Shown here: piece after piece, positions 45,001 to 51,000 of the stretch
Layout: the number at the start of each line of letters is the position of its first letter
How positions within the stretch are numbered: position 1 is the first letter of the stretch
Source of the DNA: an uncultured delta proteobacterium
GTDB taxonomy: Bacteria > Myxococcota_A > Polyangia > Polyangiales > Polyangiaceae
Assembly: GCA_963696385.1 (NCBI GenBank)
Contig: CAVOKF010000004.1
Span: forward strand, 832,001 to 896,000
DNA: 64,000 nt
Direction of reading: 5' to 3'
Made by a program: the position numbers

Positions 45001-48000
45001 GCCTGCACTACAGAACCAAGCATCGACGCTTTCTGCTGCGAGCCTCGGCATTGTCGTGCCCACCGAGGGTCGGACCAGGCTTCTTGGGTGAGACAAGGGG
45101 TGCGACTGCCCATCCAGGGCGAGTGCACGAGTGAAGCGCCGCCCGCGCCGACAGCTTCGCAACACCGAACCGATGACCGACGAAGAGCGCGCGCGCCGTC
45201 GCGAAGAGAGCGCACGCAAGTGACGCGAACGCGCACTCGCGAAGAACGCCGCGATGGCCGTCGAGCAGGTCGAGTCCCCGGTACCCGAATCGATGAAGCC
45301 GTGCGCTCATTGTGGCGGCGTGCATGCACGAGCTCTCGAGCCCGAGCAGAGCACGACCTACGAGTACGAGCCCGGTCACTTCATCCGTCGTGTGCACAAG
45401 CGGCAGAAGCTCGCATGCAGCTGCGGCCAGTCCATCGTGACGGCGCCGCCGCCTCCGAAGCTCGTCGTCGGTGGACAGTACGGCTTCGGGTTCGCCGCAT
45501 CTTCGGCAAACAGAAGCAGACCGCGAAAATTGCCGCTGGTGCCGAAGTCGTTGAAGTGACCTTGGATGCGCGTTGGCTCCCTGGTAGAAATACGCGTATC
45601 CCGCTCCGCTGATGACGAGCTGGCCGTTCGACGGCGCCACGGGCAAGCTCCATGAGCTGCGACCGGCCGCCACGGATTGTTAGACGGCCCTCTTGGCTTC
45701 GACTTCGGCATCCCAATTCGGCCAAAGCAGCACCGCGGGGTGAACCTTGAGAGCGCGCGCCAACTTCTCGGCGCGCTCGGCTCCGAGCGTCGATCGCCCG
45801 CTTTCGATGCTCGAAAGGGTGGGCTGCGCGATGCCCGTCCGGTGCGCGAGCTCGGCTTGCGTCATCCCCTGCATCTCACGCGCGACGCGCACCGCGGCTC
45901 CGGGCGTCAGTCGGACGCGCACGCGCGACGGGACGTACTCGGTCGGCTTCGTCTTCTTGATCTTGGATGCCATCGCGATCGTTCTCCTTTGCGTCAGGGT
46001 CGGTAGTCGTGCGGCGTGACACGTTCGTTACCGTCGTCGTATCCGCGTTCACCCGGTAGAGCACGCGCCACTGGTCGCTTAGACGCGACGATCGGAGGTG
46101 CGCGAGCTCGCCCGTGAGCTTCTCATCGTGCAAGCTCTTGAGCGCCCGAAGTCCGTGCGGGCCGGACTGACGGACGATCGCGCACCAAAACGCAAACTTC
46201 TCCGCAACGTGGTGGGGCAGCTTGTCGATCGCCTTGGCGGCTTGGCGCGCCTCGACGATCGTCCACATGCTCTAGGAAGTATATCAGCTATAGGCCATGT
46301 CAAGCACGCCCGTGGCCGCCACACGCGGTCCCTAGCCCCCCCGCGTCAGTGGTCCGCCGGTGCGTGTCGGTGGACCGAGCGGCCGCGCTCGCGAGCTACG
46401 CGCGGCAAACACGCGGCAAGGCGAGCCTACGACGACGATCAAATAGGCTGCACCCTGTCGTCGCGCTCGATCTGCGCACGGGCCCAGGCTGGTCGTCGGT
46501 CAAACGCTGGCGCGGTCGTTGTCGTGATACCCCGCGTGCGCACGAGCGCGACGGCGAACCCACCGAGGGCGACGACCAGAAACGGCAGCGGGGCGAGCGC
46601 GAAGAACCGCAGCGCGACCCCGATGTTCACAAGCACGACCACGATGTTCGCCGCGAGGACCGACACGGGCACGACTTCCCCGCGACGGCGGAGGGCGTGC
46701 TCGACGAGCAAGTTGACGAGCCCGAGGCCGAGCGTCGTGAGTCCCACGCAGAAGCTGTCCCCGGTGAACGAGTCCAAAACCGAACGATGCTGGCCTCCGG
46801 AGACCGGATCGATGACCGTCGCCATTGAAGTCACGAGCTGCGCCTTCTCGGGCGTCATGGCCGGCGGGGCGATATGGTTGCCCACGGTATGGCCGAAGGC
46901 GATCATCACGAGCATCCAGCTCGCCACGCGGAACCACCGCGACCCAGGGACGCTCGGCATCTTCGGTTGCTTACTCATGTTCTCACCCGGTGACGGTCGT
47001 TGCGATACCGCGCCGGGGGAGGCAAGGAAGAAGGGAGCGAAGGGGCGGCGCGGTGGAACGAAGCGTTCGCGGGTCGCGCCAGCGGCGCACCCATCGAGCT
47101 GCGCCTATTCGGCTGCTCTGGGACGACGCGCCGCCGGCTGCCGTGCGGTGATGCCGATCAGGTTTGGCGAAGGATCTTGCTCGGCCCTATCGGTCGAAAA
47201 TAGGTCACATAAAGACCCGAGGGGTGTCGTTTCATCGGAGCTTGTCAGCCGTGATCACGATCGAAGCCACCAACGCCGAGCCCATCATGGCGCTCGTTCT
47301 GGGCGCGCGCGCGGGCGATCCGGCGGCCCTAGGCCGGCTGGTCGAGCTCACGCAGCAGATGGCGTACGGCGTTGCCTGGCAGGTTCTGCGCCGCGAGCCC
47401 GACGCGCGAGATGCAGTGCAGGACGCCTATCTGCGCGCGTTCCGGCGCCTGGGCGAGCTCGATCGGCCCGAGGCGTTCGCCGGTTGGTTGCGGCGCATCG
47501 TCGTCACAGTGGCGCTCAACCGGCGCCGGTGCAGCCGCGCCCAGTGGGTTTCGCTCGACGGCGTGACGGCGCCGCCCGTGCTCGATGCCCACGAGCAGAG
47601 CTGGACGGACGAACAGCAGCGCCTGCTGAGCCGGGCCGTCTTGCGCCTATCGCGGGAGGAGCGGCGTCTGTGCGAGCTGCACTACCACGGCGGCTGGAGC
47701 GCCGATCGGCTCGCGCAGAGCGCGGGCCTGCCGGCGGCGGCGATGCGGAAGCGCCTGCAGCGCCTGCGCGACAAGTTGAGAAGGGAGATCGAGATGGACG
47801 AGCAACGCAATCTGGGAAGTCATTCGGTTCCGGGAGATCTGCCGGCGAGCATCCTCGAGCTCTTGGCGCGGCCGCGTCTGGTCGACCTGCCGGAAAACCC
47901 TGTGGGAGCGACGCTCGCGACTCTGCTGGGCGCGTTCTCGGACTTCGCGCCCATCGAGCTCCCCGAGGAGGTCGATCTCGCGGCGGCGCTCGGGCGGCTG

Positions 48001-51000
48001 GGGGGCGACGCCGTGTACATCGATCGCTCCCAGCTGCAGCGCATCGAAGGTGAACGCGTGCTCCGCTACGACCTGACGTTGCCGCTCCTGCTGACTGTGC
48101 GTTGGGACGGTGCGCCGCAGAGGCTCACGGCCGCCGGGAAGGTCTACCGGCGCGAAATCGAGAGCGCGACGCGCCTCGAGGCTTTCCATCAGCTCGAGCT
48201 GTTCGTCATCGACGAGCGCCCAAAGGTCGATTCGTTCTGGCTCGCGGGCCGCATCCTCAGCGCCGTCGACCGCGCGCTGCGCCGTTCCGAGGTGCGGATG
48301 ACGCCGACCGACTATCCGATGTGCGCGCGCGCCTGGAGCCTCGACGTGCGCCGCGACGACGATTGGATCGAGCTCATGGCCTGGGGCGAGTACGCCGACT
48401 GGGTCGTGCGTGCCCTGGGCGCGGACCCGCGCCGGCACATCGCGCTCGGCGCGGGCTTCGGCCTCGAGCGCCTGGCCCTCCTGCGCCACGGCATCGACGA
48501 CATCCGCAAGGTGGCGACGGCCCGCGTGGCATGAGGGCGAAAGGCGGGGCAAGCCGGACACCTCGTGTTCTTGAGGGGGCAGAGGTGCGACGCGCCCGCC
48601 CCCGAATGCGCGATCGGCCTGGACCGGGATAGCCTGGCCCGGCGGGGATGAAGTAGTGTGGTGACTGGTATTTGGGGGAGGACTCGATGGGAAGCGCGAT
48701 GGCAACGTCCAACTGGATACGGTGCCCCCAGTGCGACGGAGACGTTCTCGTCGCTGCGGAGTACGTCACGAAGTCGACGGTTCGAGCCCCCGCGTTGAAG
48801 TGCGCTCGATGCAAGACGCTTCATTTGGACGAGGCGGTTGCGCGTTCCCCCGCCGAGCGGGAGTCGGTGCGGATGGCCAAAGCGGAGCGGGCGGCCTTGT
48901 CCCCTTCGGACTCCGACCTCCCCGCCGAACCGCAAACCTTCGACGGTCCGGACCTCTATTCCCATACCTTCGAGGCGGTAGCCGACCGTGTGGGCCAGCC
49001 CGGCGGTAGGGTTTTGCTCGTGGACGACGAAGACATCGTGCGTACGGGCCATGGGCAGGTTCTCACCCGCGCGGGCTGGACGGTCGTCGCCGAAGGCAAT
49101 GCCGGGCATGCGGTGAGGCGCTTGGCGGTCGAGCGATTCGACGTGATCGTGACCGATCTGGTGATGCCCGCAATGAGCGGTCTCGACCTTCTTCGCACGG
49201 CGCGCGAGTACGATCTCGACGTCCCCGTCGTGATTCTCACCGGGCGTCCCGACGTGCAGTCCGCCATGGAGGCCATGCAATACGGCGCGTTTCGGTACAT
49301 CGACAAGCCCGTCCTGCCCGCAACGCTCGTCGACGTCGTCGGACGAGCCCGCGATTTGCACATGATGGCGCGGTTCAAGCGCGAGGCGCTGTCGGTCCTC
49401 GATCTGCCGAATCGCTCTCTGGGCGACCGTGCGGGCCTCGAGGTGCGTCTGTCGAGCGCGCTCGACTCGCTGTGGGTCGCCTATCAACCGATCGTCGCGA
49501 TCGGGCGCCGACAGGTCCTCGCGTACGAAGCACTCGTCCGCAACGAAGAGCCGACACTCCGGAGCCCCCTGGATCTTTTCGACGCAGCCGAGCGCTTGGG
49601 ACGCCTGCACGAAGTGGCTCGAAGGATACGCTCGCGCGTGGCCGCGGACGCCAGTGGACTTCCGGAGTCCGTGCTGCTCTTCGTCAATGTGCACCCGGAA
49701 GACCTCAATGACTTCGATCTCTTTTCCCCTTCGTCGGCCCTCAGCGAGATCGCGAACCGAGTGGTCCTCGAGCTCACCGAACGGGCCTCGCTGGATCGGG
49801 TGGCGGGACTGCAGACCCGCATCGGCAAGCTTCGCGAGCTCGGCTTTCGCATCGCGCTCGACGATCTCGGCGCAGGCTACGCCGGGCTTTCGAGTTTCAC
49901 TCTCTTGCAGCCGGATTACGTGAAGCTCGACGCCTCCTTGATCCGCTCGGTCGATGCGTCACCGCAAAAGCGCAGCATCGTCCGAGCCATGTTGCAGCTC
50001 GCAGCCGGCGATTTGAATTTGAAGACCATCTGCGAAGGGGTCGAGACGACCGCGGAGCGCGACACCCTCGTGGCGCTCGGCGGCGATTTGCTGCAGGGCT
50101 ACCTGTTCGCCCGTCCAAGCCGCGGATTCGTCGACCCGAAGTGGGATTAGGACGTGTTCACGGGGGCAGCGGGCGACTGGGGGTCTTGGGTGGTCCATCG
50201 AGCACGTTACGTACCTTGCGGAGAAGCGTGTTGGGCGTAATCGGCTTTTGCAGGAATTCGATGCCGGAGTCGCGAATTCCCTGTCGGGGTCGGGGTCGGC
50301 ATTTCCGGGTGCCCCTTCTCAGAGGTGGTCCGCGACGAAGCGCTGCGCCCCCATCGGCGGCCTGACGTAACTGTCATCGCGTTGGCGCGCGGGCAGTTCG
50401 ACCGGCTGCGGAGTCAGATCCTCGTAAGGAACGCAGCTCAGAAAGTGCTTGACGCAATTGAGCCGCGCGCGGCGCTTGTCGTCCGCATGGACGACCCACC
50501 ACGGCGTGTCTTGCAGATCGGTGAATTTGAACATCTCGTCCTTGGCCTTCGAGTATTCGACCCAACGCTTGCGCGACTCGAGATCCATGGGACTGAGCTT
50601 CCAACGCTTGATGGGACTATGGTTGCGCGCTTGAAACCGGCTCTCCTGCGCTTCGTCGCTCACCGAAAACCAGTATTTGACCAGGATGATGCCGGAGCGG
50701 ATCAGCATGCGCTCGAACTCTGGCACCGAGCGCATGAACTCGCGGTACTCCTCTTCGGAGCAAAAGCCCATCACGCGCTCCACCCCGGCCCGGTTGTACC
50801 AGCTTCGGTCGAAAAGAACGATCTCGCCCGCAGACGGCAAATGAGCCACGTAGCGTTGGAAGTACCATTGGCCGCGCTCCCGCTCCGTGGGGGCGGTGAG
50901 CGCCGCCACTCGGCAAAGGCGTGGACTCACCGCCTCGGTGATGCGTTTGATCGCGCCGCCTTTGCCGGCCGCGTCGCGCCCCTCGAAGAGGGCGACCACC

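Follow-up and report, generated by a model that had tools for sequence, protein, structure and literature searches.

An ECF-type sigma factor joined to a diverged PheS catalytic core

Architecture of the fusion gene

The window analysed here, a stretch of 64,000 nucleotides from a genome assigned to the Polyangiaceae, contains a gene in which an ECF-type sigma factor is permanently joined to a diverged catalytic core of PheS, the α-subunit of phenylalanyl-tRNA synthetase (PheRS), in a conserved design (Table 1). The open frame extends over positions 47164–48534 of the plus strand; translation from the called start, a GTG at 47251, yields a protein of 427 residues, and other in-frame starts occur at 47242 (TTG) and 47287 (ATG). 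That a single gene holds both parts, as the survey's finding had proposed, was confirmed by Pfam, NCBIfam, a PDB sequence search, and structure alignment.

Table 1. Positions in the window of the fusion gene, its upstream boxes, and the parts of its product
Feature	Position	Strand	Basis
-35-like box GTCAC of conserved upstream promoter	47204..47208	+	conserved box pair
-10-like box GTGTCgT	47224..47230	+	conserved box pair
Fusion gene	47251..48534	+	427 codons and TGA stop
Sigma-2 domain, residues 30–95	47338..47535	+	PF04542, 40.1 bits
Sigma-4 domain, residues 124–176	47620..47778	+	PF08281 below cut-off; TIGR02937 above; model helices
Family-specific adaptor, residues 189–213, LPASILELLARPRLVDLPE	47815..47889	+	conserved residues
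Class IIc aminoacyl-tRNA-synthetase catalytic module, PheS-like, residues 214–427	47890..48531	+	VIA-align, Foldseek, PF01409
Motif 2 region, G296 K297 V Y299 R300 ... F312 H313 Q314 L E316	48136..48198	+	alignments
Rebuilt side-chain pocket strand Y355-P356-M357-C358 (FPF[T/V] in PheS)	48313..48324	+	alignments
Motif 3, G400 A G402 F G404 L E406 R407	48448..48471	+	alignments

The N-terminal part has the features of an ECF sigma factor (group 4 of the sigma-70 family). Sigma70_r2 (PF04542) matches residues 30–95 (3.2e-10; 40.1 bits; cut-off, 24), and the whole-family profile TIGR02937 (sigma70-ECF, NCBIfam) covers residues 26–179 with 68.5 bits (cut-off, 42.9). Sigma70_r4_2 (PF08281) stays under its cut-off on residues 124–176 (4e-4; 20.4 bits; cut-off, 25.7), a region in which the AlphaFold2 model has helices at 120–188, and Pfam gave no match for a sigma-3 or sigma-1.1 region in the protein. 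Together with TIGR02937, the PDB sequence search, in which residues 13–180 match SigK, SigW, SigE, and SigL (2e-8 to 9e-7), recovered the ECF relationships reported earlier.

In the C-terminal part, tRNA-synt_2d (PF01409) matches residues 263–423 (8.6e-23; 81.5 bits; cut-off, 19.8), and residues 266–420 match the PheRS α-chain 7n8y_A (3.2e-13), the alignments of motifs 2 and 3 being printed as the survey had quoted them. The AlphaFold2 model of the full protein, built from a 75-row alignment, has a pLDDT of 89.9 and a pTM of 0.61, the latter leaving the domain arrangement not confidently fixed. It supplied the structure comparison that the survey's finding had lacked: residues 214–427 were aligned with residues 105–327 of Escherichia coli PheS (3pco_A, with bound Phe and AMP; Z-score, 24.2; root-mean-squared deviation, 2.3 Å over 211 residues; VIA-align), and Foldseek matched 6oz5_A (2.4 Å over 214 columns). 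Residues about 214–262, which lie outside the Pfam match and include the motif 1 'LPE', nearly invariant in the 75-row alignment, are present in the predicted structure, according to which the synthetase part is a complete class IIc catalytic module. Twelve residues of motifs 2 and 3 had been described as invariant; ten of them are so in the 75-row alignment (G296, K297, Y299, R300, F312, Q314, E316, G402, G404, and R407), but H313 and G400, at 90% or above, fall short of strict invariance.

The two parts are joined by a conserved helix, the adaptor, in which L204, P208, and L210 are invariant in the same alignment; its motif 'ELLxRPxL' is retained in the distant clade as well, and nothing corresponds to it in the true PheS rows. 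Docking of the C-terminal domain on the sigma part gave an ipSAE of 0.56 (runs, 0.34, 0.56, and 0.56; best control, 0.00), with at least 29% of contacts shared between runs and a partner pLDDT of at least 86. The verdict of the docking tool was 'weak support', for a mark that 116 of 157 solved complexes and 2 of 215 mismatched pairs attain; only 18 of the 157 solved complexes score 0.60 or less, as do both of the mismatched pairs that pass the mark.

Relation to PheS and spread of the family

The genuine pheS and pheT of the genome lie elsewhere, as had been stated: both are located on another contig, C5, at C5:857058–857840 (pheS, 301 bits) and C5:864411–866817 (pheT). With bacterial PheS (PF01409, TIGR00468; E. 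coli 3PCO), the fusion protein shares the catalytic-module fold, motifs 2 and 3, including the arginines R300 and R407 (invariant in 75 rows), and the ligands of ATP and of the amino-acid backbone. It scores, however, only 75.1 bits against the PheS equivalog TIGR00468 (cut-off, 237.45). It also has no Pfam match to PF02912, the coiled-coil tRNA-binding arm carried by the true PheS representatives, and the sigma domains occupy the place of this arm, in agreement with its absence as claimed earlier. Further differences from PheS are found in the sequence of the module, where FPF[T/V] with an alanine has become YPMC with a glycine, 'THTS' has become 'YDLT', and the 'HPAR...DTFW' loop is not retained in the alignment of the fusion proteins; since this loop is missing, the site may operate differently from that of PheS. 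On the score, the missing arm, and the altered pocket, identity with PheS was rejected. The profile NF051887 ('PheS-related mystery ligase SrmL'), another diverged PheS-like core, was likewise rejected, matching at 74.4 bits (cut-off, 300) and over positions 97–228 of 349 only; a literature search for 'SrmL' found no mention among the papers listed.

The residues that in PheS bind ATP and the α-amino and carboxylate groups are conserved across 42 fused proteins: R300 in all 42, R407, F312, H313, and G404 in 41 each, Q314 in 38, and E316, as Glu or Asp, in 42. The side-chain pocket has been rebuilt. Positions 248–251 and 294 of E. coli PheS, which we take to be the phenylalanine pocket residues, read F-P-F/Y-T/V plus Ala in 12 of 12 true PheS. 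All 13 of the close relatives have Y-P/T-M-C there, together with Gly, G400 being aligned with A294. Because of this rebuilding, phenylalanine, the ligand favoured by the survey, is unsupported, and judging from the pocket sequence the ligand in this clade would be a different one. Pocket composition varies among the more distant fused clades, which could reflect relaxed constraint instead of retuned specificity.

The fusion is a real family. PF01409 is present in all 120 relatives listed and PF04542 in 117 of them, the other three being 318–341 residues long. Sigma domains together with tRNA-synt_2d were found by Pfam in 30 of 49 representatives of a search with the C-terminal domain, down to 27–33% identity, and the fusion persists to about 27% identity, including a protein of Candidatus Poribacteria. 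The hosts belong to several phyla and live in soil, peat, and wetlands, with Myxococcota or Acidobacteriota as the commonest phylum in some clusters of relatives. In the tree, a branch with a support of 100/100 parts the 42 fused C-terminal domains from 12 true PheS. The two parts are similarly conserved among 75 sequences (mean pairwise identity, 0.617 in the sigma part against 0.619 in the C-terminal domain; r = 0.82), with 22 and 34 invariant columns, respectively. The gene is rare, occurring in 3 of 120 other genomes sampled in its own family, in 1 of 80 in the family of genome G122, and in none of 300 other genomes in a phylum sample.

Upstream promoter and comparison with known ECF groups

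Across 17 related loci, neither an anti-sigma gene nor any other neighbour was found to be conserved, in line with the proposed operation without an anti-sigma factor; the +1 gene in the window encodes a REC-EAL protein. The exact motif GTCAC-N15-GTGTC is located directly upstream of the fusion gene in 15 of 18 sources, once per locus, and in the window and 14 other listed loci GTGTC is followed by nT. The end of the -10-like box lies 22 nt upstream of the GTG at 47251 and 13 nt upstream of the TTG at 47242; in several relatives its distance to the ATG is only about 10 nt. This conservation suggests self-activation, and we infer that the sigma factor reads its own boxes. A motif scan of the genome ranked this promoter highest (32.8; next best site, 23.5). 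The genome contains 6 copies of the exact motif with a spacing of 15, compared with 3–21 at other spacings, and 5 other genomes gave 9 matches, 5 of which are the fusion genes' own promoters (backward control, 6). No regulon emerged from the scans of these six genomes, the extra matches preceding unrelated genes.

Fused C-terminal extensions are known for ECF41 (SnoaL-like), ECF42 (TPR), and ECF238 (Cys-rich), according to the consulted parts of Casas-Pastor 2021 (PMC7826278) and of a review (PMC8999054). Like these, the fusion has a sigma-2/sigma-4 core, a C-terminal domain, no adjoining anti-sigma gene, and likely self-regulation from a conserved promoter, but here a complete class II synthetase catalytic module forms the extension. 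Its -35 element GTCAC(A/G) resembles the TGTCACA given in the supplement of PMC7826278 for ECF41, ECF103, and ECF288, whereas its -10 element is GTGTC and that of ECF41 CGTC. For the SnoaL-like extension of ECF41, no Pfam match was found in the protein. ECF220, which had been suggested as possibly identical with this family, is set apart by its extension and neighbours as described in the part of PMC7826278 consulted: the ECF220 extension contains no Pfam domain and about one transmembrane helix, with transmembrane proteins at +1 and -1, whereas the fusion carries a PF01409 extension of soluble α/β fold and has REC-EAL at +1. No synthetase-type extension group is named in the consulted parts of the main text and supplement of PMC7826278 and of PMC8999054. 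Our literature searches gave no description of such a fusion, which apparently has not been described earlier, and on that ground it is plausible to speak, as the survey did, of a new class of ECF regulation.

Possible role of the PheS-type module

We give about an even chance to a self-contained, self-activating ECF sigma factor whose fused PheS-type module binds ATP and an amino-acid-like small molecule, the latter, bound together with ATP, probably controlling transcription directly. The module would replace a separate anti-sigma factor, and its ligand state would shift its position against sigma-2 and sigma-4 and so gate the joining of RNA polymerase; the freed sigma factor would transcribe its own gene from GTCAC-N15-GTGTC and probably a small set of other genes. 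The built-in ligand sensor of the survey's finding is borne out to this extent by the architecture, the retained ATP and backbone residues, and the lack of a conserved anti-sigma gene, but not as a sensor of phenylalanine. By analogy with BirA, the module may also make and keep an aminoacyl-adenylate, with the self-made adenylate freeing the sigma factor and the pockets of the clades tuned to different amino acids or analogues, a possible but rather doubtful reading. Class II synthetase cores serve as sensors, and not for tRNA charging, in HisZ and in the HisRS-like domain of GCN2; these are HisRS-derived and exert their control on an enzyme or on a kinase, whereas the present module is of PheS type and sits on a sigma factor, to which, to our knowledge, neither of the two is fused. 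If true, ligand control by the fused module would provide a one-protein link from an amino-acid-like metabolite (with ATP) to promoter choice by RNA polymerase, a new sensor type among ECF 'one-component' sigma factors, and a new fate for synthetase paralogues; a compact sigma factor with its own specific promoter could also serve as an orthogonal switch.

BirA, a biotin protein ligase whose BPL/LplA-type domain is joined to the winged helix of a repressor, is also the pattern for a rival reading, in which the fusion protein would be both enzyme and regulator: its module would be an active ligase, forming an aminoacyl-adenylate and transferring the acyl group to an acceptor, and the sigma part would only tune expression of its own gene to demand. 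This is unlikely. In its favour, nearly all of the 42 fused proteins retain R300, R407, and the backbone ligands, the module is complete in the predicted structure, and a distant member (P0247, 596 residues) adds a C-terminal GNAT acyltransferase domain, but that domain occurs in only 1 of 49 proteins scanned, the related loci have no conserved adjoining acceptor, carrier, or transferase gene, the 'HPAR...DTFW' loop is lost, and we know of no activity of PheS alone, without PheT. The likeness to BirA is one of logic, a DNA-targeting part with an adenylate-forming class II-like fold whose ligand or adenylate could set transcription; the DNA-targeting part of BirA is the winged helix of a repressor, that of the fusion is a sigma factor, joined to a PheS-type domain, and Pfam gave no match to a BPL/LplA-type domain in the protein. 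Quite unlikely, too, is a scaffold for dimerisation or protein binding with no small-molecule role. Two fusions would then pair through the motif 1 surface, or a partner, PheT or some other protein, would be bound and hold the sigma factor inactive. Class II cores form dimers, PheT is the usual partner of PheS, and both the near invariance of 'LPE' and the pocket variation between clades fit such a scaffold, which would nevertheless not need the ATP-binding arginines, F312, and Q314/E316 that are nearly invariant at 27–30% identity, nor does it fit the pocket residues fixed throughout the close clade.

Derivation from a tRNA-charging active site, and the precedent of GCN2, whose HisRS-like domain binds the acceptor end of uncharged tRNA, would by analogy allow the module to bind that end and tie the sigma factor to the charging state. 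The coiled coil for tRNA is replaced by sigma domains, PheT, which binds the anticodon, is encoded by a gene of its own at another site, and the rebuilt pocket points to a small ligand, making a tRNA sensor very improbable. The chance that the fusion is merely decaying or accidental is slight in the extreme: its rarity in the sampled genomes and frameshifted copies (P0277–P0281 and L017) would fit, but the conservation data already contradict it, with intact full-length members in several phyla, equally conserved halves, and a conserved promoter.

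Architecture of the sigma–synthetase fusion protein

The fusion gene lies in an open frame, in which the called GTG start gives a product of 427 residues, with in-frame alternative starts at TTG 47242 and ATG 47287. The protein passes TIGR02937, the NCBIfam model of the ECF superfamily (68.5 versus a cut-off of 42.9), and passes neither the NCBIfam PheS equivalog model (75.1 versus 237.45) nor that of the "PheS-related mystery ligase SrmL" (74.4 versus 300). The AlphaFold2 model, based on a family alignment of 75 rows (pLDDT, 89.9; pTM, 0.61), consists of helices up to residue 188, another helix (197–206), and an alpha/beta domain. 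PheRS alpha chains were the top-ranked structures in the Foldseek search, and VIA-align superposed residues 214–427 of the model on residues 105–327 of E. coli PheS (3pco_A; Z, 24.2; rmsd, 2.3 Å; 211 aligned), with SepRS and PylRS next in the ranking (Z, 21–22). The class IIc catalytic module is therefore whole, extending beyond the Pfam-covered part; the sigma domains take the position of the coiled coil of PheS. The open frame, Pfam, TIGR02937, Foldseek, and VIA-align together bear out the survey's finding of an ECF sigma factor fused to a PheRS alpha core, whose PDB sequence search figures and alignments were also reproduced. The ordinary pheS and pheT were located elsewhere in the genome, as had been claimed, both on contig C5. 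The pheT matches are split over two adjacent frames (profile positions 1–304, 271.8 bits; 302–798, 345.4 bits), suggesting that this essential gene is either frameshifted or misassembled.

Residues 1–190 folded against residues 196–427 gave a score of 0.56 (runs, 0.34, 0.56, and 0.56; best control, 0.00), with at least 29% of contacts shared between the runs and a partner pLDDT of at least 86. Among 157 solved complexes, 116 attain the docking mark, as do 2 of 215 mismatches, but scores of 0.60 or lower account for just 18 of the 157 and for both passing mismatches. By the tool's own verdict, the runs lend weak support to a predicted docking of the sigma part with the C-domain. Because its pTM is 0.61, the full-length model shows no firmly fixed arrangement of the domains.

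Features of the fusion gene, its product, and the source genome (positions in the window unless a contig or residues are named)
Feature	Position	Strand	Remarks
Second ECF sigma gene	44118–44966	−	281 aa; Sigma70_r2 33–98, r4_2 135–183, zf-HC2 205–239
IS66-type zinc-finger fragment	45254–45556	+	upstream of fusion gene
HTH_3 protein	45680–45970	−	upstream of fusion gene
129-aa ORF	45876–46265	−	no Pfam match; overlaps HTH_3 gene
Unannotated membrane protein	46439–46978	−	neighbour of fusion gene
Open frame of fusion gene	47164–48534	+	
GTCAC box	47204–47208	+	−35-like
GTGTC box	47224–47228	+	−10-like
Fusion gene	47251–48534	+	
REC-EAL protein	48672–50150	+	neighbour of fusion gene
PPK2 polyphosphate kinase	50319–51170	−	downstream of REC-EAL gene
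Uma2-family endonuclease	51464–52033	−	downstream of REC-EAL gene
Promoter-like site	57616–57664	−	score 19.7
Sigma70_r2	residues 30–95		Pfam, 40.1 bits
Sigma70_r4_2	residues 124–176		Pfam, 20.4 bits, under its cut-off
tRNA-synt_2d	residues 263–423		Pfam, 81.5 bits
Motif 2	R300		kept in 42/42 fused proteins
	F312		kept in 41/42
	H313		kept in 41/42
	Q314		kept in 38/42
	E316 (E or D)		kept in 42/42
	G404 (motif 3)		kept in 41/42
Motif 3	R407		kept in 41/42
pheS	C5:857058–857840		301 bits
pheT	C5:864411–866817		
49-base stretch	G000 (source genome) C3:1913, C4:1133590, C4:1168335, C5:1498668, C5:1525898, C7:1351227, C7:1376660, C7:1430251		

Family, distribution, and literature

The fusion is a real family and no accident. 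All 120 relatives among the whole-protein matches listed (55–90% identical, mostly 418–442 aa) contain PF01409 and 117 also contain PF04542, the remaining three being 318–341 aa in length; those with names are Polyangiaceae. The C-domain alone, scored against 1.84 billion representatives, gave 801 matches at E ≤0.001 and 37 at ≤1e-30. Among the 49 matches put through the Pfam scan, 30 combine sigma domains with tRNA-synt_2d (27 of them full length, 412–596 aa, with identity down to 27–33%), 4 retain the N-terminal arm and are true PheS, and 15 carry tRNA-synt_2d only. Since the adaptor motif remains, entire or partial, in all 10 inspected of these 15, two of which start within sigma-4 or its connector, the synthetase-only proteins look like 5'-cut gene calls, as judged on 10 of the 15. 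One distant member, the metagenomic P0247 (596 aa), has an extra GNAT acetyltransferase domain C-terminal to the PheS-like module. The same architecture is found in three ESM Atlas clusters, one with 92 members, in which Myxococcota is the commonest phylum, and two with 152 and 57 members, in which Acidobacteriota is, and in one distant member labelled Candidatus Poribacteria. Records labelled proteobacterium or Steroidobacteraceae are the source of four loci at 45–53% identity.

PF01409 is present in 114 of the 120 nearest relatives of residues 1–212 (sigma core and adaptor); no other partner domain was found on the same sigma core among them, the four inspected of the six without PF01409 (P0277, P0278, P0279, and P0281) being frameshifted or cut. 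When 54 catalytic modules were placed in a maximum-likelihood tree, one branch (100/100) split the 42 fused modules from 12 true PheS, which is consistent with a single origin from bacterial PheS, the tree being unrooted and the PheS sample small. The two halves of the protein are equally conserved (mean pairwise identity, 0.617 versus 0.619; r = 0.82; 75 sequences). The gene is rare in the genomes sampled: it occurs in 3 of 120 others of its own family and in 1 of 80 others of the family of genome G122, and was found neither in the one same-genus genome sampled nor in any of the 300 others of a phylum-wide sample (C-domain query, E ≤1e-25). When metagenomes were scanned with the distant-clade alignment, the search locked onto a sigma-2 peptide and brought up 80 ordinary ECF loci; the C-domain is encoded in none of them.

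ECF220, suggested by the survey as a possible identity of this family, was rejected: its Polyangiaceae proteins, in the part of PMC7826278 considered, are described with an extension having no Pfam domain and about one transmembrane helix. The main text of PMC7826278 lacks "tRNA", "synthetase", and "PF01409"; the six mentions of "tRNA synthetase" in the part of its supplement covered all concern neighbouring genes, and the rest of the supplement and Table S2 could list the fusion. The review PMC8999054 has neither "tRNA" nor "synthetase", and full-text literature searches also yielded no sigma–synthetase fusion.

Ligand site, promoter, and possible roles

Residues were mapped in two ways, by the printed alignment with PheS of E. 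coli and by aligning the 42 fused modules with 12 from true PheS; their roles (ATP, backbone, and side-chain pocket) are presumed to be those seen in PheS structures from T. thermophilus and E. coli. The residues for ATP and the ligand backbone are retained among the 42 fused proteins. In 12 of 12 true PheS the side-chain pocket reads F-P-F/Y-T/V plus Ala, whereas all 13 close relatives have Y-P/T-M-C with Gly; it varies in other fused clades. Over all fused proteins, Gly takes the Ala position in 35 of 42. In addition, "THTS" of PheS is replaced by "YDLT" in this protein, and the "HPAR...DTFW" loop is lost. Because the pocket is fixed within a clade and differs between clades while the ATP site is unchanged, this pattern fits a ligand-binding domain with its specificity moved off phenylalanine, and the sensing of phenylalanine proposed by the survey is not upheld by this residue-by-residue comparison.

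Directly upstream of the fusion gene, an exact GTCAC-N15-GTGTC is found in 15 of 18 sources (the window and 17 related loci), the GTGTC box being mostly followed by nT and the pair often preceded by an A-rich run. The three sources without it (L005, L016, and L017) have 5'-cut or broken gene copies, and in the loci and the window (265,889 bases in total) scores of at least 18 are confined to those 15 places and one weak site. The layout is that of an ECF promoter, and its −35 box is similar to the TGTCACA given for ECF41, ECF103, and ECF288 in the covered part of the PMC7826278 supplement. We infer that the sigma factor activates its own gene. Since the −10 box ends ~10 nt ahead of the ATG in several relatives, their mRNA may be leaderless.

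Twelve of the 15 promoter copies (the near-copies L004, L014, and L019 left out) went into a weight matrix, which found its sole strong match in the own genome at the own promoter (32.8; next best, 23.5); 16 sites scored at least 14, eight of them copies of one repeat, and the exact motif was not enriched at spacing 15. In five other genomes the pattern had nine matches, five of them own promoters (backward control, six). The genes behind the extra matches in the own and five other genomes had no common theme, and no regulon emerged from these scans. The only other promoter-like site in the window has GTGAC in place of GTCAC and ends 6 nt ahead of an ORF resembling, by eye, a response-regulator/CheB methylesterase. 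The near-identical 49-base stretch, which surfaced among the low-scoring matches at eight genome places, is presumably part of a longer repeat or insertion element.

The most likely reading, at about an even chance, is a one-protein, self-activating ECF sigma factor, in which the fused PheS-type module would bind ATP and an amino-acid-like ligand, this binding would gate the sigma part, and the sigma part would turn on its own gene. A true ligase resembling BirA seems unlikely, and a ligand-free module for protein binding or dimerisation, possibly with PheT, about as unlikely. A tRNA sensor would be very unlikely, and a relic is scarcely credible.

Genomic surroundings

Over the 17 related loci, no widely shared gene besides the fusion gene was found (largest other cluster, five loci), nor was an anti-sigma-like partner gene, the flanking genes being mixed. 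Real synteny is confined to four close loci (L013, L014, L015, and L019), and the same-genus genome G060 gave only scattered paralogous matches (65–74% identity). Proximity to trp/aroA in 2 of 18 sources is a weak lead: locus L010 has trpB-trpA-aroA, with trpA and aroA adjacent, and an intact fusion gene 3 kb downstream, and locus L017 has a frameshifted, 5'-degraded copy (5950–7136) between trpA and aroA. The second ECF sigma gene of the window is 2.3 kb away from the fusion gene on the opposite strand; with a C-terminal anti-sigma-type zinc finger (zf-HC2), its product looks like a sigma/anti-sigma fusion. Right upstream of the fusion gene, the zinc-finger fragment, the HTH_3 gene, and the 129-aa ORF (45254–46268) may together be what a mobile element and a toxin-antitoxin system have left behind. 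The polyphosphate kinase and endonuclease genes downstream of the REC-EAL gene are ordinary-looking.
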